Assembly: GCA_964016885.1 (NCBI GenBank)
Contig: OZ024743.1
Span: forward strand, 217,000,001 to 217,064,000
Source of the DNA: Eledone cirrhosa
Lineage: Eukaryota
Reading direction: 5' to 3'
Length of the DNA: 64,000 nucleotides
Shown here: positions 2,748-62,441 of the stretch, in pieces
How the letters are laid out: each line of letters opens with the position of its first letter
Position numbering within the stretch: the first letter of the stretch is position 1
The notes under the pieces: model-generated
What the model was told of the DNA's origin: nothing
Database searches by the model: none
Seen by the model: only the letters and a program-made list of their open reading frames with translations
Position numbers and translations under genes: made by a program

Positions 2748-3628
2748 CGAGGTGTGTCAGAAAAGTTCCAGGACTGATGTCACAAAAGATTTATTTCAAA
2801 CCTAAACTTCACACTAAGAGTTTTCTCCTTCAAAGTAATCCCCCTGGAGTATGTAACTGTAATCTTAGCTCTCTGCAGCGATCACATTTTTTTCTTCATA
2901 ATTTTATATAGATGTCCTCTGTTTCAGGTCGTCAAGCAATGAGCACAGACCAACGAACAAACTTGAAAACTCCGTCAGAAGCACTGGGAGTGCTGCAGCA
3001 AGTGTATGGAGATGAGACGGTGTTTGAGTGGTGCAAGAGGTTTAAAGAAGGACGCGAGGACGTGGAAGATGAACCCAAGAGCGAAAGGCCCTCAGCAACC
3101 GGAACTGAGGTCAACGTTGAGCGCGTCAGGCAGATGGTGCGTAGCGATCGACGGCTGACTGTTTGACTGATGGCAAATGAGCTCGGCATGAATCGGGACA
3201 GCGTCTGGAAGATTCTCACTGAACATTTGGACATGCGGAAAGTCTGCGCGAAGATGGTGCCAAAACTGCTGAACGATGTCCAGAAGGGTCGGCGCATGCA
3301 AGTGTGCCAGGACATCCTCCAGCGTCTTGAAACCGAACCAGACTTGCTAGGGACAGTCATCACCGGTGATGAGTCATGGATCTTCGAGTACGACCCAGAG
3401 GAGACCCGTTTTGAAGACGTGGACAACATCAAAAAGGCTGTGACGACGGAACTGCGGAGGATCCCAGAAGAATCCTTCCAGGAGTGCGTGCAAGCGTGGC
3501 AGAGAAGGATGGATAAGTGCATTAGACTCCAGGGGGATTACTTTGAAGGAGAATACTATTAGTCTGAAGTATGGGTTTGAAATAAATCTTTTGTGGCATC
3601 AGTCCTGGAACTTTTCTGACACACCTCG
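2748..3628 (+). mobile_element. Tc1/mariner DNA transposon, internally deleted (non-autonomous)
   Basis: 55-bp terminal inverted repeats (2748-2802 / 3574-3628, 1 mismatch, start CGAGGTGTGTCAGAAAAGTTCC), flanking TA target duplication (2746-47, 3629-30), and internal mariner transposase homology. Confidence 0.97.
2939..3562 (+). pseudogene. mariner transposase pseudogene
   Basis: HTH motif VFEWCKRFKEGREDVEDEPKSERP, linker KVCAKMVPKLL, first catalytic Asp in ITGDESWIFEYDPE and C-terminal WQRRMDKCIRLQGDYFEG. In-frame TGA at 3164-66. The segment carrying the other two catalytic Asp residues is deleted after YDPE. Confidence 0.93.
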
Positions 3629-3667
<39 letters not shown>

Positions 3668-3800
3668 GATATTAATAAATGGAAACTATATTTATAAAAC
3701 CATATTTATTCCATTATACATATTTCAGGGATACCAAATTAAATTATGGTATGCCTTCATCAGACAAAATACAATATATAACAGTTTTACAAATAAGCTT
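3668..3800 (-). mobile_element. Family F Penelope-like terminal-repeat fragment next to (TA)n
   Basis: Shares ATAAATGGAAACTATATTTATAAAACCATATTTATT with 27140-27345 and 61815-62068; contains a hammerhead motif. Confidence 0.7.
3708..3770 (-). ncRNA. type I hammerhead ribozyme motif (family F)
   Basis: Minus strand attttgt-CTGATGA-aggcatacc..ggtatccct-GAAA-tatgta-TA-atggaat. Stem I is 7 bp (with G-U pairs), stem II is 8 bp, and both core boxes are intact. Confidence 0.8.
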
Positions 3801-3925
3801 TGACGTACACTTTTAAAATGCAACCATTATTTTTGGAAGCCATCTGGATAGTGAATTGTTTATATTATTTTAATAAGTCTTAGTGTTAAGGACAATTAGA
3901 AATATATATATATATATGAATTTAT

Positions 3926-5825: not shown

Positions 5826-5912
5826 ATATATATATATATTTTAAAAAAATAGAGGTGTGACACACGAGTTGTGATATATATATATAAGGAATATATATAT
5901 ATATATATATAT

Positions 5913-5998
5913 TTATTAAAATAACAGATTAAAGTTTAAGCAAAGAATCGCTGCTTTCACTCTTTGGATTTTAGTCTTGAAATTTATTATTATTACTA
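5913..5998. mobile_element. Family E short inverted-junction fragment between TA tracts
   Basis: Left part matches the minus-sense arm and right part the plus-sense 3' end of 55645-56167. Confidence 0.75.
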
Positions 5999-6170
5999 TA
6001 TATATATATATATATACGTTTGTCTGTATCCATGTATATATGTGTGTATATATATATATATGCATATATATACATGTTTGTTTGTATGCATGTATATATA
6101 TATATGTGTACACACATATATATAGATATATATATATTACCCATTGTGTTGTTATCTCTGTTTACCTTTT

Positions 6171-10792: not shown

Positions 10793-10862
<70 letters not shown>

Positions 10863-10864
<2 letters not shown>

Positions 10865-11066
10865 GTAATAATAATAAATTTGAAGACTAAAATCCAAAGA
10901 GGGCTCGATAAGGATAAATATATATCAAATATATAAGAACCGTAGAACAAATATTTATTAAAATAACAGATTAAAGTTTAAGCAAAGAATCGCTGCTTTC
11001 ACCCTTAACGGGATCTTCTGAAAGCAGCGATTCTTTGCTTAAACTTTAATCTGTTATTTTAATAAA
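10863..11066. mobile_element. Family E fold-back element flanked by (TA)n
   Basis: Inverted arms ~10952-11001 / ~11019-11066 joined at a TGAAA microhomology; the left arm extends to the family 3' terminus GTAATAATAATAAATTT. Confidence 0.85.
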
Positions 11067-11079
11067 TATATATATATAT

Positions 11080-11505
11080 ATTGTTATACTTGGGGAGGGT
11101 AATATTGTTGTAATAATTGTTTTTACTTTTGGCACAAGACCAGCTATTACCCAGTGCATTACTAGTACTTTATTTTATCGACCTCGTAAAGATGAAAGGC
11201 AAAGTTAACCTCGGCGTTTTTGTAACGATATTGCCAGAATTAATAACAGAACACATTCACTGTTTGGTTGGTTTTCGCTTCTGTATCTTTCATATCAGTT
11301 AATTTATTCCGTCCTCAATGTTTACCATTGACTGACCAACGGTCAAAAATAAAGATATAATATAGACACTGAAGCGAAAACCAACCAAACAGTGAGTGTG
11401 TTCTGTTATTAATTCTGGCAATATTATTACAACAATATAAACCTCCCCAAGTATAACAATATTTGTTTCGACACACGATTTCATATAAAAAACCTCCCAA
11501 AACAA
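11080..11505. mobile_element. Family D (Penelope-like) fold-back element with a nested SINE
   Basis: Inverted arms TTGTTATACTTGGGGAGG...CACTGTTTGGTTGGTTTTCGCTTC and its reverse complement; homologous to 36633-37218 and 54717-55498. Confidence 0.85.
11112..11216 (-). mobile_element. tRNA-derived SINE, 5'-truncated, nested in the family D element
   Basis: Matches the SINE 3' half (GGCACAAG..CAGC..ACCCAGTGCATTACT..TTTATCGAC..GATGAAAGGCAAAGTTAACCTCGGCG). Confidence 0.9.
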
Positions 11506-17086: not shown

Positions 17087-17090
<4 letters not shown>

Positions 17091-17275
17091 AGAAAGTATG
17101 ACCCCGAAGGCAGAGCTCAAGCCGTTTCGACGGCTATGTTGGACTTAAATAGCCGTCGAAACGGCTTGAGCTCTGCCGTCTGGGTCATACTTTCTCCTAT
17201 TACCCACTCTACTACCCTAAGTATTGAGTACTCTGGTGCGTTATGGTCCATCTGTTTCCTTACCACACTTCTTCG

Positions 17276-17277
<2 letters not shown>
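17087..17277. mobile_element. Family C fold-back element flanked by (TA)n, carrying the 3' half of a hammerhead
   Basis: Arms ~17087-17137 / ~17149-17200; GAAA-CGGC-ttgagctct-GCCG-TC; 3' part shared with 26838-26940 and 61493-61708. Confidence 0.82.
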
Positions 17278-17312
<35 letters not shown>

Positions 17313-24329: not shown

Positions 24330-25200
24330 CTTACTGTCCTGCTTCCTTTGGATTTCAAAATCGATCATGGATTAGCTTCCGCCATATTGGTCTGTCATTA
24401 TCAAAATAATGCCTTCAGCAGGGAAGAGTGTAACCTTTTCTCAAAATTTATTTTTTGAGATATTTATAACTCAAGAAAGGGCGTCCTACATTTCGAACAC
24501 CATCCTCAAGCTCACCAAAAAGAAGTCTCTTTACAGGTCTACAATCATCTATGCGGACAACGTGTCCAAACCATCTGAGTCTATTCCCTATGAAGATTGT
24601 TTCAATGTAGGCAGTATTTGCAGGTTTCAGTACCTCAAATTTTGTGATAAAAGTGATCACATTTAATCTTGAGAATATACCTACGGTGTGGTTGCTGAAC
24701 TGTTCTTAACTGTCTTACGTGGTAATGATTGAGAGTCTACGTGTCAATTCTATACAACAATAGAGTCATACATTGTCTATATACTTTGAATTTAGTCTCA
24801 GTGTTCACTTCCCTGGATTCAAAGACTCTGACTCTTAGTTTACCTACAGCACAAGAGGCAGCTTGAAAACCTCTGCTAAGCTCTTCATCCAATTGTGTTT
24901 TTGTGACATAGCTGCCAAGATATTTGAAGCATTCCACTCTGGAGAGTTTTCCTCCATCAATTAAACAACAACTTGCTCTCCGACCTTCATTGTCTCTGTT
25001 TTCTTAATGTTGATTAGGATACCCATTTTCAAAGAGACTGTGTTATATGCAGATAACAGCTGTCGTTGAGCAAATGAAGCAGAAAACAGCAATGTCGTCA
25101 ACATATTGGGCAACACTTATGAAAACATGAAGTATATTTGTCTTGGATTCGAGGTGATGAATATGAAAAATATCGCCATCATATCTAAGCATATGTTGAT
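24330..25200 (-). mobile_element. RTE-clade LINE reverse transcriptase fragment (decayed)
   Basis: Minus-strand peptides AQYVDDIA (YxDD, ~25090-25115), FKYLGSYVT..LDEELSR..AASCAVGKL..TKFKVY and RLRWFGHVVRIDDCRPVKRLLFGEL..RNVGRP, with frameshifts. Confidence 0.9.
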
Positions 25201-26050
25201 GAGATGTGAGGAGCTGACTTCATTTTATCTAAATTATTTTTCATATATATAAACAATGAATAGTAGCAAAATAAATGGAAACAGTACGGATGAACATTAC
25301 CAATGTATGACGCTTAGGATTAGTAGAAATAAATATTTCTGACGTTTCGGACAAGGTTGTTCTTATGAAAATAGATGGAACAAAGTTAATCAAGAAATGA
25401 AAAGGGAATACAAAATAAAACGAAAAAAAATGTGGACTGAGAATATCCATATAATCGTGTTTCTACTTGATAATCGAGCGCGAGCGTGAGATGCATATTC
25501 CCATATAAAGCAAAATATGTTCACATTTGCATTCAAGTAGATTCAAAACAGACAATCATCAGTCCGTATGCTCACAACATCAAGTATACTTTACACATAG
25601 ATGTTTGTAATCAGTACTCCCACATTCAACTCTGTATCTTAAACGAATTTACTCTCAGAGTGCTCCCATCTGTCTTTAATATTTCCGTGTTTTTCCCCGT
25701 ATCTTTCTACTATATAAAAATATATAATTTCCTACTTATCTATACAGATGTTTGTCCGTGAATCTGTCTGTCTATCTAAGTATTTATCTTGTTATAATTA
25801 TATTTATGTCAATGTCTCTTGGAAAATTCAAACTAGCTGGATATATTGATTAGTCGATAAAAGTATTTGTAACAGGACCTTTCTAAATATATCAATACAT
25901 CTACATATATTAGCTGATGACAGCATAAGAAAAGATTGTTAAAACAAGATCTCTGTTGAGATGAATATATCGGTTATGTTTGACTACATAGCAAGCGCGT
26001 CTGAACCTGTCCATTGTTTGGCCAACCGTAGGTGTATTATATGCTTACGT

Positions 26051-26103
<53 letters not shown>

Positions 26104-26109
26104 GAGAGT

Positions 26110-26620
26110 GAGGTATAAATCGCGTACATTCATGTAAAACGATAGACACGAACATACAAACAGAAATATATCACATATCATTATTTTCTGAACGGCTTTT
26201 GTCAATGAGCAGTGGCCATTCTGGTGTGCTGCCTTCAAGTGTTTAGTTCAGAATATTGGCACAAGACTGCTAAGTAACGTGCCAGTAATGGCTTATTTTC
26301 TGATTTGGTTTAGCCAGCTGCTCGACGCCGTCATCCTATTTCATAGGTTGCGAATTTTCTTTCCGAAACCATGTCCAGATTTCAGATCATGCTCATCTAG
26401 ATGGGGGCTGAGACGAAAATTGATTTGAACCGTCTGGCTTTGCGTTTTGCAGATGAAGTGCTTTTGGATAACTGATAGATTTTGACATTTACAGTTTTCC
26501 ATTCTCAGCAAAGATTATCCCCAAGTATTTGAATTAGTTCGTTCTATTAACCAGCTGTCTCTTGATGGCTTTGCTCTCGCCCCAAAGTGTAACATTAAAA
26601 CTTTCAACACCGGATTTAAT
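26110..26620 (-). mobile_element. decayed non-LTR retrotransposon RT fragment
   Basis: Minus-strand FKYLGIIFAENGK at ~26495-26533; GC-richer block. Confidence 0.5.
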
Positions 26621-26837
26621 CATTATTCAAGTAGTGGGCAGGTAGTGTCTAGAGTGAATTTCATATATTAGTGTGGCTGCACATATGCAAAAGCATTGCT
26701 CTATGGTTTTATATATATTTTTTTATGTATATATTATCCTTATCCAGCCCTCTTCGTATTTTAGTCTTGACATTTATTATTATTATTACTATATATATTA
26801 CTATATATATTACTATATAAATTATTACTATATATAT

Positions 26838-26936
26838 AAAACGAAGGAAGTGTGACAAGGAACCAGATGGACCATAATACACCAGAGAACTCAATACTTA
26901 GGGTAGTAGAGTGGGTAATAGGAAAATGTTTAACAT

Positions 26937-26940
<4 letters not shown>
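26838..26940 (-). mobile_element. Family C fragment between TA tracts with a short terminal hairpin
   Basis: Reverse complement of 17190-17277; GAAAATGTT-T-AACATTTTC hairpin. Confidence 0.8.
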
Positions 26941-26987
<47 letters not shown>

Positions 26988-27001
26988 AAATAACAGATTA
27001 A

Positions 27002-27052
27002 AGTTTAAGCAAAGAATCGCTGCTTTCACCCTTAACGGGATCTTCTGAAACT
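27002..27052 (-). ncRNA. hammerhead-like motif with variant core CAGAAGA (family E fragment 26984-27052)
   Basis: agttt-CAGAAGA-tcccgttaagggt-GAAA-gca-gcgattctt-tgc-TT-aaact; all three stems can form. Confidence 0.6.
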
Positions 27053-27059
27053 ATATATA

Positions 27060-27345
27060 AGTAGAAGGGATATTTAATTTGTTGCAAATCCAACAAATAT
27101 AAATGTTTATAACTGATTTAGAGCACTCGACAGTTTTCAATTATATTAAATAAATGGAAACTATATTTATAAAACCATATTTATTCTACCAAAAAACTCT
27201 GGTACGCTTTCATCAGATAAAATACAAAGAGTGTTTTATAAATTTTGACATAGCCAAGGATAATCATACCTTATCAGTTGAATATTTATAATAGAATAAA
27301 TATGGTTTTATAAACATAGTTTCCATTTATTTAATATCATTGTAT
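27060..27345. mobile_element. Family F fold-back element
   Basis: Arms ~27143-27188 / ~27292-27337 are inverted; the minus-strand CTGATGA is retained but the GAAA segment is deleted. Confidence 0.75.
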
Positions 27346-28009
27346 ATACATATATATAATTTTAAGAAATCACACTAACAGCAGATGCTTTGTGTATCTA
27401 TGCATTGTAACACTCTACCACATTACTATCTTACTCAATGTTAACTGAAATGAATTTAGGCAAAGTAGAACTCTTATACAGAATTAGTAGTGTAGTGGTA
27501 ATATTGAAACAAATAAGTTAGTGTTATCAATAAAATTAATACAACTTACAAACAATCGGCAATCAACTCAATTAATAAAAACAAATTATTGATATACACC
27601 AGCACATTAATTAGGTTTTCCAATAAAATTGATACAACTAATATCAACCGATCAATAATCGAATCAATTAATAAAGATATCAAAAATATTGATGTCTACC
27701 AAATTCACCAATGTTTCTATCGGGTACGGAAATATGAGCATATTCAAACAGTCAGTTGCATAATAACCTGGAATTGACATAAGATCTTCAGTGAACACTG
27801 TCCAATAAATAAGACAGGGAAAATATAAAATATAATTTCCGGTATTCTGCTTTTATTTTTCTGCCAGCAGCTTGAAAACAAGTAGCTGTATCATCGGCTG
27901 TCTTGTAAAAAGTTGTGGATTTAAAGAAAAATGCGGCCGAGGAATCTGACTATTCAATTGAATTAGTAAGTTCGCCGTATTGTTTTACTACAGAAAGTAG
28001 TCTAATAAT

Positions 28010-28198
28010 TGTTTCTAGTTTTGGCACAAGGCCAGCAATTACCCAGTGCATTACTGCTACTTTATTTTATCGACCTCGTAAAGATGAAAGGCAAAGTTAA
28101 CCACGGCCGAATTTGAACTCAGAATGGCAAGGGCCGTAACTCGAGACGTCAAAGCACGGTGTCCGACCCTCTACCGATACTGCTAATCCATCGCCATT
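28010..28198 (-). mobile_element. tRNA-derived SINE with TSD
   Basis: TSD AGAAAGTA(G/A)TCTAATAAT at 27992-28009 and 28199-28216. Confidence 0.94.
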
Positions 28199-28674
28199 AG
28201 AAAGTAATCTAATAATAACCATTCATTTTTCCGTTTAGATTACTATTAGGCTGTTTCTGTATAGAGAAAAGTACGGCATATTATTATAACACATGCATAA
28301 ATCGTTGTATTAATTAGCGAACCGTATAATGTAATCTACCTTTAGCATGTTTCCTACACATATTACGAGCTTTGCATGGTTATACCCACAGTTAAAAGGT
28401 GAATTATATTAGTTGACTCACCTACATATCAGAGATAAAACTACGTTCGTTTACCTGGGTACTTAATGTGATCATTTGTAGAGATCACCGAATTTTCATG
28501 CTTCTCACATACGGAATTATCTACAATGTGGATTGAACCGGTTTCAGACGGGAATAGAAAATTCAGCACTGCTTCAAAATGTCCACTGAACTAAGTATCC
28601 AAAGGTATAGTAAAACATATTAAAAACATTCTTCTGTATTTGAAAAGCAACATATAACTCTCGCAACACACATG

Positions 28675-28728
<54 letters not shown>

Positions 28729-28788
28729 ACATATGTATATACACACACACACATATATATATATATGTGTGTGTATGTATATATACAC

Positions 28789-28823
<35 letters not shown>

Positions 28824-30242
28824 TATATATATATATTCCTATGAGAATATGTGCATATATGTATATACAGGAGGAAGTAATTTTTCTGCATATATACTTG
28901 AAAGGGTGTGTCAGTATTTGTTTGCGAGTGTGTGTCGGTGCACGTGAGCGCGTTCATGTAAGGTGATCGGAGAATTGACCATATTTGACTAAACGTATTT
29001 ACTTTCAGAAGTAATCGAAGTGATAAAAGTGAAAGGCATTGAATTCGATATTCAATCACACGTGAAATGTGTGCACTGCATTTAAGCAAGCCGTCACTTC
29101 ATTGACCTATTTATATATACATATGCAGTGCATAGCCATGTTATATCGACCTATAAAATGAAAGTTGCAGTCTAATCTCTGCTCCATTTACTTATTTTCC
29201 TGTACATACATACCTACCTACGAACTTACATGTGTATATGCATACATGCAAACAAAAATGTATATGTATGTAGGTATGTATGTATGTATGTATGTTTGTA
29301 TGTATGTATGTATGTATGCATATGTGTATGTGTGTATATATATATGTGTATGTATGTATGTGTGTATTTGTGTATGTATGTATGCATGTATGTATGTATG
29401 TGCAATTTTTAATATATATTTCAAAGAGCCATATAATGTAGTGAAAATAAAATAAAATGGAATTTAAAATAAACTTAGGGAGATGACTTTCATTGAACTT
29501 AGGTGAATAAATTACTCCGAATTATAAAGGTTATATGGCGTTTGTGAAAAGTGATTAGCAGAGCACTCAATCACAAAGCTTAAAGAGTGTGACACTTGCA
29601 TGTTTGTGGGTTGTATAGTGTGTGTGTGTGCTTAAATATTTGACCTCAATGATATGTTGCTGCGAATATTTTGTACGTTTGTACATATTTGAGGTTTATG
29701 TTAAGAATCTATCTACCTATTTATATTATTTACCTCGTGTTTGTCTATTAGAAGTTATTCCATGTATGGAATTATTTGCCTTGTTTACTTATATATCAGC
29801 ATATGTTTAAATTATATATGAGTATGTGTAATGCGTATATAATTGTTATGTTGTATGTAACATATATGCTACCATTCATATCTTCGTTTAGTGAATATAA
29901 TGTGAGTCTTAAGAAATACATCAATTTTATGTTGTTATTGGGCGATGAATTGGAAGAATTGTTAGAGCGTCTGATAAAATACTTGGGGGTATTTAAATTT
30001 GGCTCTTTAATTTCAGAGGTAAAATCGGTCAGATTTCCTTTCCCTTTTTCCGGAGCTCATAAAATATATTACTAGTCACGTACTGGAGTCGATTACCTCG
30101 ACTTCCACTCCCCACAGATTATCGACCTTGTGCTTAATTTAGAAAACAGTTTATTCGGTTGGTGGGTAGTTGGAATCCCGCTGAGATCAACACTGCTATT
30201 TATTTTGCCGACATCTATAAAAAAGTGATTGTATAGTTGAAA

Positions 30243-30384
30243 TTCTTCTTCTTCTTCTTCTTCTTCTTCTTCTTCTTCTTCTTCTTCTTCTTCTTCTTCT
30301 TCTTCTTCTTCTTCTTCTTCTTCTTCTTCTTCTTCTTCTTCTTCTTCTTCTTCTTCTTCTTCTTCTTCTTCTTCTTCTTCTTCC
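30243..30384. repeat. (TTC)n microsatellite, the (GAA)n tail of the adjacent LINE
   Basis: Perfect trinucleotide run directly abutting the LINE 3' end. Confidence 0.95.
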
Positions 30385-30905
30385 TGGAACACAGTCCTCG
30401 AACACTCCTTCCTGCGGGTCCTGTCAGTAGCGACCGACCGTTTCCAACATATACGACTGGATCCGCGCTCGGGGGTCTACTCCTGGGTCACTTCCCACGA
30501 GCTACGAGGAATCACATTTCGGCTGCTTGTATTCGTGATCGTATTATTTTGGCCATTACTCAAGATGCATGACCACAAGTAAGTTTTGGCACGAATACCG
30601 AATTGAAGATCACTATTTTGGCTTTTACACCTACCACCTTCCTCTGAATACAAAACGCTGAAGCTGCCGCATTTCTACAACAGCTACGGCAGTTATTGCA
30701 CTTTATTCATCCTCCTGCCTTCCATCTCTCGTGGACACGACCCCAATATACCGTAACCTCTCCACCTGATTCGGTGGAACTCCATTCACATATAGAGTGC
30801 ACTGCGCAGGCGCTCTTCAAAGTACAGGTGTCTTAGTTTTCGCAGTCTTGATTTTCATTCCAGTCATGCAGCCCTCGGCATCAAACCTATGTAGTGGAAG
30901 TCGGA
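30385..30905 (-). mobile_element. RTE-clade (Rex3/Expander-like) LINE 3' fragment
   Basis: Minus-strand KAKIVIFNSVFVPKLTCGHAS*VMAKIIRSRIQAAEM*FL then GK*PRSRP, resembling the LTYGHExWxMT..RSRIQAAEMxFL and GRRPRGRP motifs. Confidence 0.8.
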
Positions 30906-30930
30906 GATCACCTTCTGTTGAATCAAATAA

Positions 30931-31036
30931 TTGTTTCTACTTTTGGCACAAGGCCAGCAATAACCCAGTGTATTACTGTTACTTTATCTTATCGACCCCG
31001 TAAGGATGAAAGGCAAAGTTAACCTCGGCGGGATTT
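30931..31036 (-). mobile_element. tRNA-derived SINE, 5'-truncated
   Basis: SINE 3' half ending CCTCGGCGGGATTT. Confidence 0.9.
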
Positions 31037-34000
31037 AAATAATAATTGGTTGAAATATTTGGGTTTAATCGATTATTCCATTCTTAATGTATGGCGGTAC
31101 TGCGCTCATAGAAACAAGGATTACATAGCCACAGTTCACCTGATTGAACAGGCCTATGATCAAATGCATTCCAGCATTGACCATCCAGTATTTTTTTTAT
31201 TTTCAGACAAGATTATCTAGTGTATCGTTGCTTAATTAAGTTTGTTAATATGCAATTCCAGCGGTATATATTTGCTATTCACAGTCAGCAAAACGACTAT
31301 TTAAGCTCTCTAGGCATACACGTAATAAGGTGGAGACCTGTACTCATGGATACTAATACAACTATGAAGGAGATGTGGCTGCTAGCTCTAACATGTATAG
31401 CGAGTATATATGCTTGTAAGTTATTCCCTCGGATACCAGTACAACTATTTCTTTGTCCCGATATATCTAACGATTAATCGATCAAACAATTAATCATTAA
31501 TCGATATATTTCACTTTCAAAAATATCAAACATACTCACAATACAATCGACTTTACACAGTGATGCTACAGATGCCCTTTGTATTATTTCTTTCAGACAT
31601 TTAGCTGTAGCCACGATGGGGCACCACCACCACCACCACCCCTTGCTTCAAACTCCTTTCCTTCCTTTTGATTTTTATTTGATATACTTTCTATATTTGT
31701 TTCTTTTTAGCTTTATTTGTCCTAGTTATATAATTCATAATTCTCAAATTCTCAAATAAATTTATACTGTTTTGCCCCCAGTGTAAATTGTCTTTTTCAC
31801 GTTATCAACTCTTTTAAATTCAATACTTGAAAACATCTCTCATTATATTTATAAAAATATACTTATGTTTATATTCTTTTTATTCTCAGTCTCTCTTTCT
31901 CCCTTCATCTCACTATTTCTTAATTTCTTCACGTTCAGTACACAACATTATATTCCTTCTAGTATTGTTTTCTTTACTTTTCTCTTTTTTGTCACTTCCA
32001 CTAACATCTCATTTTGTATTTATTCCTCCACCCGTTTTTCTTCATGTACACATACAAAATCGCTCACACATGGACGTTTGTTCATTCATTCCCCATACAG
32101 TCCCCTCCCTCTCTTCTTTTACACTACTCATACCTAATCTTTATTTCACATACATTTCTACACATTTATCATCACATGACTAGTCCATTAAGTGTAACAC
32201 AAACAAATCTTATTTCAAACCCACTATCACATTTTCCTTGTTCCACTTCCTATACGTATGGATGTTGTACTTATGTACGTTTGTTTCGTCTTTTTCCTTT
32301 CTACATTGGGGAAGATCTTAACTTGCGAAACAGTTTGACTCATCTGTTCGTTACATTGTACGTAGCTGGCACTTTCTATCCTAGCACTTATTTTATTAAA
32401 TTGTCTAATATATCCAAAACGACCTTTATATATGTTGTGATTTATATTCATACTTTATCTTTCTTGCTAAATTCATCACTTTACTCTACAACCTACTCTG
32501 TCAAATAAGCACACCTGCATGCATATATATTAGCGATGGGAATGAAGGGTTGGTGCGCAGTTTCAAATTGAGGGGTAATTAGTCAAAATCTTCCACCATT
32601 CCCACCTCCCTATCTCACACCTTATTGTGCCCATTGTTTCTAAATCCTACTCCCAACATTACACACTTGAGCACAAAATCACACCTCCAATAGAGATTTA
32701 TATAAACGAAACGCTTGATCTTCTATAAATTGCAATCACAAATTACACATTACTGCTTTAAATATCAGAGGAACATAGTAGATTTAGATGGATATTCCTC
32801 AAAGAGGGCTGATACGACCCTCAGAACTGGTATAGTTTGAAACTGGACGTTTCTGTGGGTGTCACCGCAATGTTTAACATGGAAGATACATTCAGATGAT
32901 GGCGAATATTAATGGTTTTACAAGGTAAACACCTTTGAGCAAACACGTTTGAGTACAAGTGCTCTCGATATTCTATTTGAGAAAACAAAAAAAATAAATA
33001 AAAACCCGGATAATCATCGATGAAACTCATGATCACAACCTAGCTTGATCAGAACTAGCCACCAACTGAACAACAACAATAAGAGTGTCTATGAATCCCA
33101 TCCGTTCTTTTCATTCCTGTAATTTTTTCCTCTCAACATATATATTTTTATCATTATCAACTTGTAAAACGTACACATCTTTTTCATTCATCTTTTCTTC
33201 ACATGCTGCTTTCATTCCTTTGCCATTACTGTAAGCTTTAAAATGAATATACTTTTCAATATACTTATAAATTTCTATGAACTTTCACACATGCGTACGA
33301 ATACACATCTTTATATACATGTCTGCATATATAACATGAATTTAAGCTATTAAATTCTCGGACATCAGTTTTTGCGAAGAAAGATTATTTTCTCTCTAAT
33401 AAGCAGAGAAATAAACATAAAGAACAGTATTAACTGTTTCTGAAAAATTCCCTCACGAGAGATGCACTTGCATTTTTTAATAATATATCAGCATTTGTTA
33501 TCAATCTCTTTACTTTTCCTTTGTCTCTTTTTAGTGCTTTAATATATAGTGCTCATAATTTAAACCTTCTTACCACTCAAAGCAAATTAATAAATATATA
33601 AATATTTCAATTTACTTTCAGAGAAACTTGAACCAAATGGTGGATTTATCTGACATCAACTATTTGTTATCCTCGCTTTGCATTAATAATGCTTGGCTAA
33701 AATCCAAAGTATTGTTTAGATAAGTCTTTCAAGTTGACGCTAAAGAATGATTTATTGTACTTAGTGTGAATGGTTCCACGGGGAAAACATTTGACAAAGA
33801 TGGATGTAGATCCAATAGCATGGATTTCATAATGGAGGAAATTTCTTCCTTCTAAATCTTCTTATTTGTATATGCATCTGATACAGAATATTTAAAGATA
33901 ATGTATATTATACGTTTGTAGGAAATACACTTTAGTACGTCTATACTAAATTCTATTAGAATACAATACATTATACAAATACATAACTCATCATTAATGA

Positions 34001-36632
34001 CAAAAACAACGTGATCTATTTAGTCATTGTCATTCGTTGACCTTAACATTTCTCAAACTAATGTTGGATTACTTTTATTAGGTACGTTGCCAACATATTT
34101 TGGAGGAGGGATATGTTAAATTTCATCTACTGTAGTATATTATTGTCTATAATTTATCGATGTGGAGAAGATCAAATACAGATCAAACCCTACAGCTATT
34201 GATAGTTCGAATGTACAAAAAAAACAAAAAAAAACAATATAAAACACTGTCATTTGGAATAGTGATATATTTTCTGTATTCTCTCTACATACTATTTCAT
34301 TTATATTAACCTATATTGGCTTCTTAGGTACACCGCTAAAGTAGTAGGGTTAGAGTATAGTGGATTATGTTGACTTCAGTAGACTACTGGAAAATCACTA
34401 ACAAAATAATGAAAATTCAAATCGATATCCATGTGTTTGGAGCTCAGAATTCGAGGATAAGTATGGAAGTATTCTAGTATATTTCAGGCATTGCTCTGCT
34501 ACTATCATATTTGTAATATACTGGGACATTAAAATGTCAGTTGGTAAATGTCATCAGTTCAATAACGGGAAACTCTGTATTAATACTTACACGCCGTTCA
34601 ACTGTTTTATGGTCAATTGTGTAGACTTGTCAGCAAATAAATATAGGGAAAAACAACTCAATTATACAAAGTTGAAATGTTACTTAACCACGTGTTCTAG
34701 TCAAGTTAATATATGTTTAAGTGCAAAAACTGGGAAACCTTCACCGCAAGTGGAATTAGATTATGGCAATTGTCAAAATTTCCATTGTGCGTTTTATATA
34801 TAGGCTTGAAAATGACATAGAATGTATACGTTACACTTATGGAGGAGTAGTTGCATGCTTACGACGATGCATCTCATATGAGGTTTCTCGGTTGTTGTAA
34901 AGATAGAGGACTCAGTCTTCAGTCCTGTGATTAAAAGCAACGCGAACAGAAATGGTTTGATCTAGAATACAATGCGTCGCCCGGTCCTGGAATTGAACCA
35001 GCGTGAGTGTAAACGCTCACTTCCATGTCTTTTACTTTCCACATTTTCATGAAATGTCAGATTTATGTATTTTACAAATACATTTCAACCACTCTTTGTT
35101 TCCAAACTTTTCCTGTTAAATCTTAGTTTGCTGCCTTTGTGTTAAGTATATTAACCTCATGAAAACCGTTATGATCCACAAACCAACATCTATCTATCTT
35201 TCTCTCTGTTTCTTTATATTTCTCGCAACATGTTAATTCCTTATGTCAGATAGTCTGATGCAAATCCTACATTTAAATAATTGATTAGGTGATAGAGATC
35301 ATTCTTTTGTTTATTGGTGTCACTGTCGGTGTGATATTAGTTACCATAGAAATAGTATAATGACTACAGGAAACATCTAATTTATCCTCTCTCGCAAACT
35401 TCGATTTCCCCTGTTTTCAAATCATTAAAGTGTATAATCATCAATCTTGTCACATGCCAATGTCTTGTCTAGCAGTATAATGCAAGGTTTATTTATAATA
35501 TCAACTTCAGGTTGCATCAGTACTTACCGATAAATAGAATCATAATAATCCATAGAGAGATATACAGATTCATAGTTCAGTAGAAAATATAATACAGGTT
35601 TCAAATAATATTTACAATCAATTTTATAGTTACTTAAGACTTTAATAGTGTTAAACAAAAGCCCCCCCCCCCCCCATGTCATCTCACTTAATCTGTGGCA
35701 ACTTGTTGAAAATAAATATACTCCCGCCCTGTTTGTGATCAGTCATTTGTGTTTACATCTCAACCATGATATCACAACCTAAAACGGAAATTTATTCTAA
35801 GCATTATTTTGGGCTCTAATACCAATAATAGCATAAAACAACGTTATTCTTTTACTAATTAACTAATGATGAATGGTTTAGTGTGTTATTATGTATTTTA
35901 GTAGGACAGTAAATGAAATAGGCTTACATCAAAATTTCTTCTCAAATTCATACTGTTTTTCATCATAATAAAATATGTGGAAATCTAGAATCACCGACTA
36001 TACCCACTGAGTAGGTGAAATTTTCCCATCTGGTGGTAAATTTACACCATACTGGGAGCCACTGTTTTAAAGCCTTTAAGGTCACAGCAGTCAGTATTTG
36101 TTAAATGTTAAAAGGAAAATATTGAGCACATTAATCTGGAATAGAAATGTGATATATAGTTAGGTTTCCGGCCACATTTTTGCATAGTGTCTTATCACTT
36201 TAGAGACATTGATTTAAAATATTAAACCGCCATACAATAGCAGCTATTACATTTATTTCCTATGACATTTCCTCTAATTAAAACCTGCATTAGAATAGCC
36301 ATCATGGAATAGAGGCTGGTGGATAGAATAATCAAATATTAAAGGTAGATAAGACAATCCATTGAAGAACAATTTCAATGGTACCTGATGTACCAAGCTA
36401 ATCATCAGAACTAATTAGAAACCCGATAACCCGATTATCATATCCTGTCATTATCGATGCGTTGAGTCAGTCAGTGGTGATTTAGCAACCAAAGAGTGAA
36501 TTCGTCTAGCTATAATTAGCTACTGTGCGGTGATAAGACTCCTTGTAGTACATAGCAGCTGCACTAAAAGTGACGTTTGATTCGTAATGTTGTGGTGACG
36601 TTGGCCTAAAGATATATATATATATATATATT

Positions 36633-37218
36633 AGTTTTGCGAGGTTTTTTATATGAAATCGTGTGTCGAAACAAATATTGTTATACTTGGGGAGGGTCAT
36701 ATTTGCGTAATATTGCCAGAATTAATAACAGAACACACTAATTGTTTGGTTGGTTTTCGCTTTTCGCTTCTGTGTCTTTTATATCGGTAATCTAATATAA
36801 TATAATATACTCGGTCCTCAGTGTTGCCATTGACTGACCGGCGGTCAAAAATAATACAGATACAATATAGACACAAACACATATATATAGTTTATCATAA
36901 ATCTTTCGTTGCACATCTGCAACATCGTCAGTGGTTCTATTGTGAGGAGGAAACAATAGAACCACTGACGATGTTGCAGATGTGCAACGAAAGATTTATG
37001 ATAAACTATATATATGCGTTTGTGTCTATATTGTATCTGTATTATTTTTGACCGTCGGTCAGTCAATGGCAAGATTGAGGACCGAGTATATTATATTATA
37101 TTAGATTACCGATATAAAAGACACAGAAGCGAAAAGCGAAAACCAACCAAACAGTGAGTGTGTTCTGTTATTAATTCTGGCAATATTACACAAATATCAC
37201 CCTCCCCAAGTATAATAA
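36633..37218. mobile_element. Family D long fold-back element (~265-bp arms, 9-nt spacer) with two divergent hammerheads, flanked by (TA)n
   Basis: 36678-36943 is approximately the reverse complement of 36953-37218; the left arm extends to the family terminus AGTTTTGCGAGG. Confidence 0.92.
36961..37008 (+). ncRNA. hammerhead ribozyme motif (family D); mirror copy on the minus strand at 36888-36935
   Basis: acca-CTGACGA-t-gttgca-gatg-tgcaac-GAAA-gatt-TA-tgat. Stem II is a perfect 6 bp and the cores are intact; stem I is weak. Confidence 0.7.
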
Positions 37219-37220
37219 TA

Positions 37221-54683: not shown

Positions 54684-54717
<34 letters not shown>

Positions 54718-54869
54718 GTTTTGAGGTTTTTTTTATATGAAATCGTGTGTCGAAACAAATATTGTTATACTTGGGGAGCGTCATATTTGTGTAATATTAC
54801 CAGAATTAATAACAGAACACACTCACTGTTTGGTAGGTTTTCTCTTCTCGCTTCTGTCTCTTTTATATA

Positions 54870-54917
54870 TAGTTTATCATAAATCTTTCGTTGCACATCT
54901 GCAACATCGTCAGTGGT
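54870..54917 (-). ncRNA. hammerhead ribozyme motif downstream of the GIY-YIG ORF
   Basis: Same CTGACGA-tgttgcagatgtgcaac-GAAA-gatttatgat sequence as 36965-37002, on the same strand as the ORF. Confidence 0.72.
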
Positions 54918-55155
54918 GCTATATTTTCCTCCTGTTGTATTGTATGTCTACGCCATTTTTATTCAGTCTGTCTATATATTTATTTATTTATTTGCTTGTT
55001 TGGTTATTTTATTTTGTCTTCTTTGCGCATTGTTTGCGTGAGTGTATAGTGTTTGTTTGCTGTCTAGTGTGTGTTTATGTGCTTGTTGTTATTGTGCTTG
55101 TGTATGTATGTATTTATTTATTTATTTATTTATTTATTTTATTTTATTTACTTAT

Positions 55156-55462
55156 TTATACTTCTCTTAGGTCAGTGTTGTTTGTTTGGGTGTTGTTGTT
55201 ATTCCATTCATTCTTTCTCTTTAGCCTTGGTCTTCTAATTTCTATTTCACTGGCCTCTCTGATTTGCCTATCTGCTGGGTCATTTCTATTTTTAGTTATT
55301 ATTCTAATTTCTATGTTGTCTATGTTACCGTCATGTTGTTGTCTAGCATGTTCGTATGGTACTGACCCGTTTTTTCGTCCTTTTAGTTCCCCCCAGTTTT
55401 GGTCTATCCTTTCACCTATGCTACGAGCTGTCTCACCTATGTATGTTGTGTCATGTTTCTGC
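55156..55462 (-). pseudogene. Penelope-like GIY-YIG endonuclease fragment
   Basis: TYIGETARSIGERIDQN..SVPYEHARQQH..IRII..DRQIREASEIEIRRPRLKRKNEW shows the YIGET, catalytic Arg, His pair and RxxxE motifs. Confidence 0.9.
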
Positions 55463-55493
55463 AATATTACACAAATATGACCATCCCAAGTAT

Positions 55494-55641
<148 letters not shown>

Positions 55642-55644
55642 GTA

Positions 55645-56167
55645 TATTTATTAAATAACAGATTAAAGTTTAAGCAACGAATCGCTGCTTTCACCCTTAA
55701 CGGGATCTTCTGAAACTAACAAAGTCAATCTGTGAACGCAGAAGTGTATATTTAAAATAACGTTGCAACCGGAGGAAGACAGGAAGACGATACTTATTAG
55801 TCTACGACTTCTTTTATACCATTAACGTGGTTTTGTCATTGAGTGTAATTGTTTGTCCCCGCTCCTAATAATGACGTATTATATTCGTTTTTTTCCCGAT
55901 CTTTGCCAGGGAACGCTTCCGCGAACCAAAGTATCGTCTTCTTGTCTTCCTCCGGTTGCAACGTTTCTTGAAATAATCATTTCTGCGTTCACAGATTGAC
56001 TTTGTTAGTTTCAGAAGATCCCGTTAAGGGTGAACGCAGCGATTCTTTGCTTAAACTGTATTCTGTTATTTTAATAAATATTTGCTCTACGGTTCTTATA
56101 TATTTGATATATATTTATCCTTATCGAGCCCTCTTTGGAATTTAGTCTTCAAATTTATTATTAATAC
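55645..56167. mobile_element. Family E fold-back element (arms ~150 bp, 133-bp spacer) with hammerhead-like motifs at 55667-55717(-) and 56007-56057(+)
   Basis: 55645-55795 is approximately the reverse complement of 55929-56082; the right arm runs to the terminus AAATTTATTATTAATAC-TA. Confidence 0.88.
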
Positions 56168-58523
56168 TATATATATATATGTATATATATATATAATAAA
56201 TTAATAATAAATTGTATCTTATGTCATAAAACCCCATGGGAAATAAGTATTGCATGTAGTAATAGCTTCTCTACAAATGAGATAAGCTTTAAATGAAAAG
56301 TGACCTTTTGAAAGATGGTTTTATTTTACTACAATATTAAAAACAATATAGTAAGTATAACGTGTCCAATGTTTAAAACTATCCGACCGTATGTCACTTC
56401 TTCCAGTGTAACTATTTGATATTAGACCATTTTAAATCTATAATTAAAGCTAAAATTAAAGCTATATGTTCGAGATTTAACATTTATTATCGCGTGAAAT
56501 ACTGATCTCATTACGATCACGTTAATAAGCGAGTTCACTAACTAAACACAAACTCGAGAATGTGGACCATCGTGGAGATATTATAATATAAAATTAATTA
56601 TCAATGGAAATATTTTGTTTTATTTGGAGACTTATAGTTTAAATCCTTATGGTGGTGAACTGGCGAAAATGTTTAAGATTCTAACAAGACTATTTATTCT
56701 GGTTCCTAACGTTCTGAATTCAAATATAAACTTGGCCCACTTGAGTGGAATAAACATTCCGCGCCGACCTGTCCCTATGGCGCTTTAAGCGAGCATCGCT
56801 GAGTTGCAAGCATTCGGGACATGTATGTGCTTTCAGGACACCTTCTTTCCTTTAATGTTAACACCAGAATCAGAGAGGCATTAAGAATAATAAGGGGCCA
56901 TAGATATTGCCCATTATCCTGAAAAGTTGATAATAATTACACTAAGCATACGAATATTTAAATTAAAAGTTTACAAATTACTGAAGGGCGTTTGAGCTCA
57001 CTGGCTATACACGCATGTCCAGTGCGAAAATTTGCTATGCCATACTTATGCAATACAAAACCAGGAGTATATGTTTTAATAAAGTGGAAAGGAACTGTTA
57101 AGCACTACACTGCTTTTTATCGAAAGAATAATGAGCGTTAAGCTCAGCAATGTCAAACGAAAAAGTCATAAATTGCATATACAGTATATGAGAGAATGTA
57201 TATAGTTAAATGGACGCATCTTATTGCTGAAAATGTCAGAAACAATAATGACTAAACATCTGATAAATAAATCTTTATGAACAATAACAAGTAGTCTCTT
57301 TTCTTTCTTTTTCACTTGTTTGTCAAACTGAAATAAAAGCACTAAAACTATGTTTCCCAATATAATATATAGAAAAATCACAAAAGTTCTTTTGATTGAA
57401 ATAATTAGGAACACTAAACACATCATTTTCCGTTCAATGAACATATTAAGCACACTTCACTGAATATAGCTGAACTGGTTTAGAAATTTGAACAGGTTTA
57501 GAAATTTGATCAGAGTACTTAGTTCTTTTTTTTCATTTCTATATTTAAACAAAGTTGTATGAAATTAATTCTAAATTGAAAGAGAACTTCGGCTTCCGTT
57601 GAATAAGTCAATCCGAATTCTCGATGGCAAATCAATTAGTTTGAAACTACTTAGTAACATTATTCAGAAGACTTTTTACAACTAAAACCTCAAGAAATTC
57701 TTCTTTTGGATATGAACATACAATCAGCTGCCTCCACCACTATCAATAATACAAGCACCACAATTCTAACAGCCACCACCAGTGCCACTTGTAGTAGAAG
57801 TAGTAGTAGTAGAGAACATAGTGTATAGCTTCCAAACTTTGCCAGTTTTGAAACTCTTTCCTTTTTGAAATTCTTAAGGAAAATATAAATATTTTCAGTT
57901 TGAATTCCGGAAGTTGTCGTCTGATGGAGTTAACTTTGATTATAATAAATTGGCTTAAGAGCACCGTGTCCTTCTCTTAATACCACCGCTACCACAACCA
58001 ACAACAATCACTCCACCACCACAAAGAAAACATCTCGACCAACGACATTTTTCGATTTTTTATAGCTTATTTTACTAGCACTAGATTTCCTAGGCTTCGC
58101 TATTTTCAATCGATCTGGTTCCAAGATATTTGCATTGTTTGAAGGAGGAGACAGTTAATTGGAAACAAGAAAACTAAAGCTCTGAATAAAAGAAAAACAA
58201 AGAAACATATAATAATCTTTAATTTGGGATGTAGTATAATGTCTAGTCACAAATGTCTCTGTCTTTAGGGATCAGACAAAGAAACACAGACCAAAGATAA
58301 TTGTATGATATATCAGTACGTATATAGAAGTATGACTAATAAGGTTGCTATTAAAACAAACATTATTATTGTATGTTTAACATTTAGAGTGACACAAGTA
58401 AGAATAAAAATAAAAATCTAAAAAAAATCTAGTTTAGTAAAAATATAGCATGGTTGAGCGAAGTTATATTTCAAGCAGAGAAAATAAGCAGAGAAGTAGA
58501 AGAGGAAGTAATATAACTGCAAC

Positions 58524-61492: not shown

Positions 61493-61710
61493 AACGAAGG
61501 AAGTGTGGTAAGGAACCAGATGGGCCATAATGCACCAGAGTACTCAATACACAGACCAAAGATAATTGTATGATATATCAGTACGTATATAGAAGTATGA
61601 CTAAAAAGGTTGCTATTAAAACAAGTAGTAGAGTGGGTAACAGGAAAATGTTCAAGACCCCCGTCGAAACGGCTCGACCTCTGCCGTCGGGGTCTTGAGC
61701 ATTTTCCTAT
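61493..61710. mobile_element. Family C fold-back element containing a 76-bp captured local sequence
   Basis: Matches 26838-26930 and 17150-17277; GAAA-CGGC..GCCG-TC; insert 61549-61624 equals 58284-58359. Confidence 0.85.
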
Positions 61711-61719
61711 ATATATAGA

Positions 61720-62066
61720 TAAGCAAAGATTTATTTAATTAGTTGGTTATTCAACAAATTTATTTATAATAGATTCGAAGCACTCTACAGTTTTCTTCGG
61801 GAGTATAATATCAATAATATTAATAAATTGAAACCATCTTTATAAAACCATATTTATTTTATTATATATATTTCAAGGGTACCAAATTTGTTGGTACGTT
61901 CTCATCATATAAAATACAAAAGTTGTTTTATAGATAGTGACATATTCAAAAACAAGAACTTATCGTTTTAAATATTTTATCTGATGAGAGCGTACCCAAA
62001 TATGTTGGTAACCTTGAAATATATATAATAAAATAAATATAAAGATGGTCCATTTATTAATATTAT

Positions 62067-62068
<2 letters not shown>
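61720..62068. mobile_element. Family F fold-back element with two divergent hammerheads
   Basis: Arms ~61810-61916 / ~61973-62070; flanked by TA tracts. Confidence 0.85.
61974..62034 (+). ncRNA. type I hammerhead ribozyme motif (family F), the best example in the window
   Basis: attttat-CTGATGA-gagcgtacc..ggtaacctt-GAAA-tatata-TA-ataaaat. Stem I is a perfect 7 bp, stem III is palindromic, predicted cleavage follows A62027. Confidence 0.85.
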
Positions 62069-62144
<76 letters not shown>

Positions 62145-62207: not shown

Positions 62208-62240
62208 GAGAAAAACCATAGACCCTCGATCTCAACTCTA

Positions 62241-62277
62241 CTTTTGAAAAGCAGAAGAACTGCGAAACCGGTAGAGG
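62241..62277 (+). ncRNA. degenerate minimal hammerhead in a TA-flanked insert (62208-62290)
   Basis: ctt-TTGAAAA-gcag-aagaa-ctgc-GAAA-ccgg-TA-gag. Stem II and palindromic ACCGGT are intact; the first core is two transitions from CTGAAGA. Confidence 0.5.
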
Positions 62278-62441
62278 AACCAAATAAATATATATATATT
62301 TTTTTAAATAAGACTCCAGTTGCATTTTCGATTTCATCTTTTTTCTTTATACTTTCACTCGTGTAGGACACCTCGGTTATTTTTCATTTTGTAAAAAAAC
62401 CTCACTTTCTAATATATAAATAAATATATATATATATATAT

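Follow-up and report, generated by a model that had tools for sequence, protein, structure and literature searches.

A type I hammerhead motif within a very common repeat, probably the end of a Penelope-like retroelement

Work by Lunse et al. is said to relate to type I hammerheads in metazoan Penelope-like elements (PLEs). The closest described systems are the hammerheads of PLE pseudo-LTRs, which have a palindromic helix III and low activity as dimers, belong to families full of compensatory changes and can lie on opposite strands in pairs separated by 100-700 bp (Cervera and de la Pena, 2014; PMC4209133). In the strict minimal form (min-HHR) of that work helix III comprises 4 nt, while the alignment given there includes A-U and G-U closing pairs and, in some species, longer palindromes. 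The dimer model is restated in PMC6765202 and PMC3088659. Two start sites of reverse transcription, protein-assisted cleavage and insertion without cleavage were reported for the Poseidon PLE PAc of Anolis carolinensis (Frangieh et al., 2024; PMC11167929), and inverted truncated copies, tails of 30-40 bp and a bias towards (TA)n were described for PLEs by Craig et al. (2021; PMC8557442). Retrozymes are defined as head-to-tail tandem units (bioRxiv 10.64898/2026.07.22.740005). Penelope-like families have been reported from an octopus in an article whose main text does not mention hammerheads (PMC13282606). In the literature searched and one supplement, no described cephalopod example of a PLE-type hammerhead was found; most subscription papers and Repbase/Dfam lay outside this search, and other supplements may list the family described here. 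Arrangements like the one reported below are already known from many animals.

Within the window, the whole 64-kb stretch of DNA that was analysed, a type I hammerhead motif lies inside a very common repeat (family F). Three copies were obtained at the positions that the original prediction had given (Table 1): the two arms of a locus at 61.8-62.0 kb and a copy of a second subfamily (the 3708 copy). Each consists of an 8-bp stem I, the sequence CUGAUGA, stem II, GAAA, an 8-nt self-complementary stem III and A17. The left arm, which was located via alignment, has AUGAUGA instead, and the predicted change of C3 to A is thus borne out by the sequence. The type I core (CUGANGA ... GAAA ... UH, three helices, open at stem I) is therefore present, with the left arm failing at C3. 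A type I descriptor with one core mismatch allowed gave two full matches in the window, namely the right arm and the 3708 copy. With the exact core there were likewise two, against a mean of 0.005 per shuffle in 200 block-wise dinucleotide shuffles of the window, none of which (0/200) reached two. As the two matches are related copies, they count as one event, which is well above chance. The Rfam model Hammerhead_1 matched the right arm at 61975-62033 with the core in register and 13.3 bits, below its gathering score of 34; no hammerhead was reported by Rfam for the 3708 copy, nor among the 111 matches at E up to 1 over the whole window. At the 61.8-62.0 kb locus, both hammerheads have suffered damage and have probably lost activity.

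Family F shares with the PLE pseudo-LTR hammerheads (PMC4209133) the type I topology, the full core and a palindromic helix III suited to dimers, as well as many dispersed truncated copies, opposite-strand pairs and subfamilies with compensatory changes. It differs in that stem II is closed by A-U or G-U and has neither G10.1-C11.1 nor the 9.1 bulge that characterise the PLE consensus, in an AU-rich stem I of 8 bp, and in a C-C mismatch at position 4 of stem II that is invariant in all three window copies. Stems I and III are nearly all A and U. The supplement of the same paper holds precedents in Marsupenaeus (both A-U/G-U closing and no bulge) and D. willistoni (A-U), and helix III, with 8 nt compared to 4 nt in the minimal motif, matches the longer palindromic variants. 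Strict minimal hammerheads have a helix III restricted to 15.1-16.1 (4 nt), the 9.1 bulge and G10.1-C11.1, and none of these was found in family F. By its core and its conservation the motif is very probably a type I hammerhead, although it falls outside the strict minimal class; its probable derivation from a PLE is indicated only by its layout.

Table 1. Coordinates of family F copies, their hammerhead parts and related features in the window.
Feature	Position	Strand	Remark
Right-arm type I hammerhead	61973-62035	+	found by descriptor; core intact, one stem II pair broken
Right-arm stem I	61973-61980 with 62028-62035	+	
Right-arm core	61981-61987	+	
Right-arm stem II	61988-62015	+	
Right-arm GAA	62016-62018	+	
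Right-arm palindromic stem III	62019-62026	+	
Right-arm A17	62027	+	
Right-arm predicted cut	62027/62028	+	
3' end of right arm, no tail	62036-62069	+	meets (TA)n 42 nt beyond predicted cut
Centre of inverted pair	61917-61972	.	left-arm 5' extension to about 61945, then short spacer
Left-arm hammerhead	61855-61916	-	C3A at 61908; pair-breaking stem II change at 61899
Shared 3' segment of left arm	61812-61854	-	to point where tail-less copies stop
Extra tail, left arm only	61718-61811	-	about 94 nt; ends in short TA run
Second-subfamily copy (3708 copy)	3669-3795	-	intact hammerhead 3707-3771; tail-less 3' end in (TA)n
Tailed copy (27180 copy)	27058-27250	-	hammerhead minus about 20 nt including GAAA and cut site
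Tail-less inverted partner arm	27281-27347	+	5'-truncated at end of stem II
Family H	36632-37220, 54715-55500, 11078-11503		inverted-copy, tail and (TA)n layout like family F at 36632-37220 and 54715-55500
GIY-YIG endonuclease fragment, family H	55159-55458	-	not part of family F

The differences between the three copies had been presented as covariation that keeps the stems paired. Pairing is indeed retained (58 of 60 paired cells), the two broken cells being one in each arm of the 61.8-62.0 kb locus, yet covariation among the three window copies is weak and not significant, and so small a set could not demonstrate it. Twelve of the 20 pairs are invariant, five are changed on one side and one departs solely through a broken cell, which leaves positions 2 and 5 of stem II as the two pairs in which both partners change. 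The covariation score of the three copies was equalled or exceeded in 57 of 500 shuffles. The stem I differences that had been quoted in this context all consist of G or A opposite U; they are one-sided wobbles and therefore not covariation.

Conservation was then considered at the level of the family, with RAD reads and contigs from six sequencing runs of one organism, none of which is recorded as RNA. Contigs of runs X1 and X2 match the 3708 stretch without differences, so that these runs may be the source of the window DNA and not independent of it. At 80% likeness, the left arm matched 3679 contigs and 25,039-32,958 reads per RAD run; for the 3708 copy, 906 and 920 contigs and 25,085 and 32,868 reads were obtained. 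Among the rows listed in the left-arm variant table (40 of 76), C3 is present at 61908 in 322 of 334 X4 reads and in 97% of the X1 depth, and the pairing G at 61899 in 309 of 328 X4 reads. Since most family reads have C3, the change to A belongs to the left arm and not to the family. The variant table of the 3708 copy is complete at 3% (25 rows), and the pair-breaking letter of the right arm is absent from it. On this copy, 18 of 65 motif positions vary in at least 3%, with 0 of 12 in the core versus 18 of 53 elsewhere (Fisher p = 0.013, which is a guide only, since reads resembling the copy are favoured by the likeness filter and the positions depend on one another). N7 is free in family F and is U, G or A on the 3708 copy. 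All four variants in stems I and III of this copy are G or A opposite U and keep the pairing, while five of the ten stem II variants break a pair unless the partner changes too; two of these five fit a partner letter found in the other subfamily. Pair 8 of stem II appears broken in a subfamily of about 10-25%, and a third subfamily with C-G at pair 6 is tentatively suggested by loose-end lines at an agreement of 0.70-0.75. The read tables carry no linkage, and a few RAD loci dominate the depth. Taken together, family F bears signs of selection on the RNA fold, and the support for this is the conservation of the core across many copies, not the covariation of three.

In folding calculations, isolated copies form stem II, with most pair probabilities at 0.85-1.0 in the 3708 copy and lower values for parts of the two arms, and stem I only partly (0.01-0.29); the probability of the monomer hammerhead fold does not exceed 2.5e-6. 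At -3.2 or -2.2 kcal/mol, stem III gives a weak duplex, and co-folding has its minimum in a structure other than the hammerhead dimer. For the whole inverted pair, -111 kcal/mol was obtained on the plus strand and -110 on the minus strand, with all hammerhead pairs at 0.000. These energies, which ignore tertiary contacts and proteins, fit slow and assisted cleavage in source elements and predict none in a read-through transcript of the 61.8-62.0 kb locus, where RNA running across both arms would form a long hairpin that hides the ribozyme. The palindromic stem III had been taken as the signature of minimal hammerheads that cleave as dimers. It is palindromic and suited to dimers, but at 8 nt it is not the 4-nt helix of the min-HHR; helix III of family F is an 8-nt palindrome or near-palindrome that is unstable as a monomer. 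We infer that the family F motif works like a dimer-type PLE hammerhead. A cis dimer of the two arms is ruled out, because they lie on opposite strands and would not meet as a dimer on one transcript.

The arms at 61718-62069 form a head-to-head inverted pair with the 3' ends outward; over 283 aligned columns they share 76% identity. The 5' boundary of the right arm coincides with the first stem I base. Its left counterpart extends to the shared end point 51 nt beyond its own cut site and then continues for 94 nt more, and a homologue of this tail is located at about 27058-27138. The same layout of a tailed arm and a tail-less inverted arm is repeated at 27058-27347, where the plus-strand arm is a fifth, partial copy that the original prediction had missed and that forms the inverted partner of the 27180 copy. 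The latter was said to have lost its GAAA; this element is gone, but within a larger loss of about 20 nt, which covers the last part of the 3' strand of stem II, then GAAA and stem III, and also the cut site together with 3 nt of stem I. An inverted 5'-truncated copy together with a one-sided 3' tail thus occurs at two of three F loci in the window; for the copy at 3669-3795, no partner arm was seen in the window. Opposite-strand joints are also present in other family copies, as obtained from the left-arm reads and contigs. All five window copies end beyond the predicted cut, by 42-145 nt, and their 5' ends differ. The X4 depth is about 300 in the tail versus about 24,000 in the shared part, and therefore tailed copies are either a minority or other tails are too divergent to match. 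Copy ends at two sites downstream of the ribozyme, AT-rich targets and an uncut ribozyme within inserted copies are likewise features of PAc, where the tail has 30-40 nt compared to about 94 nt in family F (PMC11167929). The (TA)n bias, the inverted 5'-truncated copy and the one-sided tail are shared with Neptune and Naiad PLEs, of which the Naiads, unlike family F, are described as being without canonical hammerheads (PMC8557442).

A 391-nt contig of X1 (393 nt in X2) contains 3696-3788 unchanged and, about 100 nt off, an inverted second arm with 15 differences; this extra arm may represent another locus, another allele or an assembly difference with respect to the window. In four families, inverted arms have their inner (5') ends at ribozyme-like hairpins or within them (61973, 27281, 36931-36965, 17093-17193 and 10951-11073; an uncontrolled tally), which may reflect pausing or fold-back of reverse transcriptase. 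In one of these families (G; 17088-17285, 61495-61708 and 26832-26940) the two inverted arms are unequal and the tail measures about 90 nt. At 61.5 kb and again at 26.8 kb, family G lies immediately left of family F and is oriented like it. The centre of its pair at 17093-17193 is a hairpin that GAAA follows directly, as if the inversion had taken place within stem II of a ribozyme. Another (E; 10837-11073, 55640-56215, 26975-27053 and 5873-6016) has an unequal inverted layout with a long tail, and its CAGAAGA, short hairpin and GAAA constitute a hammerhead-like core with U4 changed and no clear stem III.

A layout like that of family F is further seen in family H (Table 1), which has a long inverted pair centred just upstream of hammerhead-like cores at 36931(-) and 36965(+). 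A third, identical core is located at 54913(-). In these cores G10.1-C11.1 and the 9.1 bulge are present, and stems I and III are imperfect in all three. The family H segment 55201-55458(-) gave 86 homologues at E up to 0.001. Three of the nine homologues that were scanned match Pfam GIY-YIG weakly, below the curated cut-off, and the longest has RYVDD upstream of its C-terminal match. Pfam gave no match for the fragment itself, and word-based protein searches gave none either; atlas placement put it beside GIY-YIG clusters (0.95), the nearest of which are commonest in Mollusca and Arthropoda. The combination of layout and GIY-YIG fragment in family H ties this layout to a PLE in this genome, while a protein link for family F was not found. 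No reverse transcriptase or endonuclease was tied to family F, none of the tblastn hits of the 86 GIY-YIG homologues near any F copy being better than E 0.9. The five window copies contain no ORF and are too short to hold a reverse transcriptase and a GIY-YIG domain, and no ORF start was found at the F ribozyme. A YPDG-containing stretch with broken frames upstream of the 3708 copy (3826-3880(-)) was dropped as a candidate endonuclease, being supported by 0 of 86 homologues; the loose YPDG-type pattern matched two places in six frames. We take this stretch to resemble the C-terminus of some PLE endonucleases.

Directly observed are the motif and its layout, the large number of copies, the conservation of the core and copy ends 42-145 nt past the predicted cut. 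Family F is probably the pseudo-LTR region, the end that bears the hammerhead, of an abundant Penelope-like retroelement. The stretch 61718-62069 would then be a decayed insertion in a TA microsatellite, composed of a tailed copy and an inverted, 5'-truncated and tail-less one. A hammerhead upstream of the 3' end and an AT-rich or microsatellite target are both present in family F. By analogy to published PLE work, the PLE endonuclease would nick AT-rich DNA and reverse transcription of uncleaved RNA would start downstream of the ribozyme, from either of two internal sites, leading to tail-less or tailed ends, and a second, truncated cDNA may be added in inverted orientation. Source elements would be under selection to keep the ribozyme, which presumably cleaves slowly and only if two stem III palindromes pair or a protein assists. 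After insertion, copies would drift, so that changes shared by a subfamily mostly keep the pairing and copy-specific changes break it, and the 61718-62069 locus is predicted not to cleave when it is transcribed across both arms.

The predicted cleavage site had been noted to lie in a TA run, the same sequence as the insertion target. The window is AT-rich (GC 0.21-0.39 per 2 kb) and contains 112 runs of (TA)5 or longer, and ATATATAT accounts for 1106 of its 2524 palindromic 8-mers (44%). At the U(A/G)U position of stem III, G makes up 65% of the X1 depth on the 3708 copy, so that the TA run of stem III is not fixed. The AT-rich composition of the DNA is the best explanation for the match of stem III to the TA target, although a few copies in the genome may end at the cut site. 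In a more elaborate reading, the self-cleaved 5' RNA ending in (UA)4 pairs with nicked (TA)n and primes reverse transcription, the cut site thereby setting the insertion site. The stem III of the right arm is a pure UA run, TA runs adjoin all five copies, and PLEs lacking an endonuclease attach to telomeres via repeats beside hammerheads (PMC8557442). Such priming would, however, leave genomic copies that end at GAAA-TATATATA followed by unrelated flank, whereas all five copies extend past the site and the depth across it falls by only 0.4% (X4) and 0.3% (X6) without a step, so that a link between cut site and target is not supported. Together with the G that interrupts the run in many copies and the normal insertion of cleavage-dead RNA of the anole PLE (PMC11167929), this makes the reading extremely doubtful. 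It is very unlikely, too, that the stem III palindrome has two jobs, pairing ribozymes as RNA and serving, as DNA or cut RNA end, as the element's own (TA)n landing site or primer, thereby building the tandem copies on which cleavage depends; if true, the hammerhead of PLEs would take part directly in target choice.

Three further explanations concern the nature of the repeat itself. Family F could now be propagated by borrowed PLE proteins, being itself a short unit without coding sequence (a solo pseudo-LTR, or SINE-like or retrozyme-like) whose hammerhead processes tandem or circular RNAs as a dimer. This would agree with the shortness and the missing ORFs of all five window copies, and with an 8-nt palindrome that suits dimer cleavage while the isolated monomer fold is very improbable. 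Moreover, animal retrozymes are proposed to derive from PLE pseudo-LTRs, and non-LTR retrozymes resemble family F in being non-coding, carrying a type I hammerhead and being related to PLE pseudo-LTRs (10.64898/2026.07.22.740005). We nevertheless regard it as unlikely, because the F copies are inverted pairs or single, in contrast to the tandem retrozymes of that preprint, no head-to-tail F pair, and hence no array of two or more hammerhead units, occurs in the 64-kb window, and the variable 5' ends of the copies are what truncation of a longer template would produce. The inverted, TA-flanked arms with 76% identity over 283 columns could also be read as terminal inverted repeats of a MITE in a TA target, with the hammerhead as a passenger. 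This is extremely improbable, as the arms are unequal with a tail on one side, the inner ends vary between loci, a lone arm occurs at 3669-3795 and the core of the ribozyme has been conserved; family F showed no symmetric terminal inverted repeats whose ends are fixed. It is hardly credible that the motif arose by chance in AT-rich DNA full of palindromes and was amplified with the repeat. Stems I and III of nearly pure A and U, the non-significant covariation test on three copies and the Rfam score under its threshold would be expected from it, but none of 200 shuffles gave two matches (though the two real ones are related copies), and variation within the core is confined to N7, with none at its other 12 positions. 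The family F pattern was found at 0 loci in viral contigs. Its 37 pattern loci in metagenome contigs were dropped as chance, as 0 of 37 resemble family F by blastn, and one metagenome locus flagged by a loose downstream pattern is without stems.

As a probable PLE derivative, family F would add one more PLE-type hammerhead family, probably from a mollusc and, judging by the appearance of the repeats, conceivably from an octopus, and its thousands of copies and several subfamilies are good material for a proper covariation test on PLE hammerheads. Two minor features of the window are added here. A deleted transposase remnant without a Pfam match lies at 2932-3630 and ends at a TA run beside the 3708 copy; by its motifs, we take it to be mariner-like. 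At 62236-62280, a hammerhead-like stretch with a short hairpin, GAAA and a CCGG palindrome has a degenerate core and is present as a single copy in the window.
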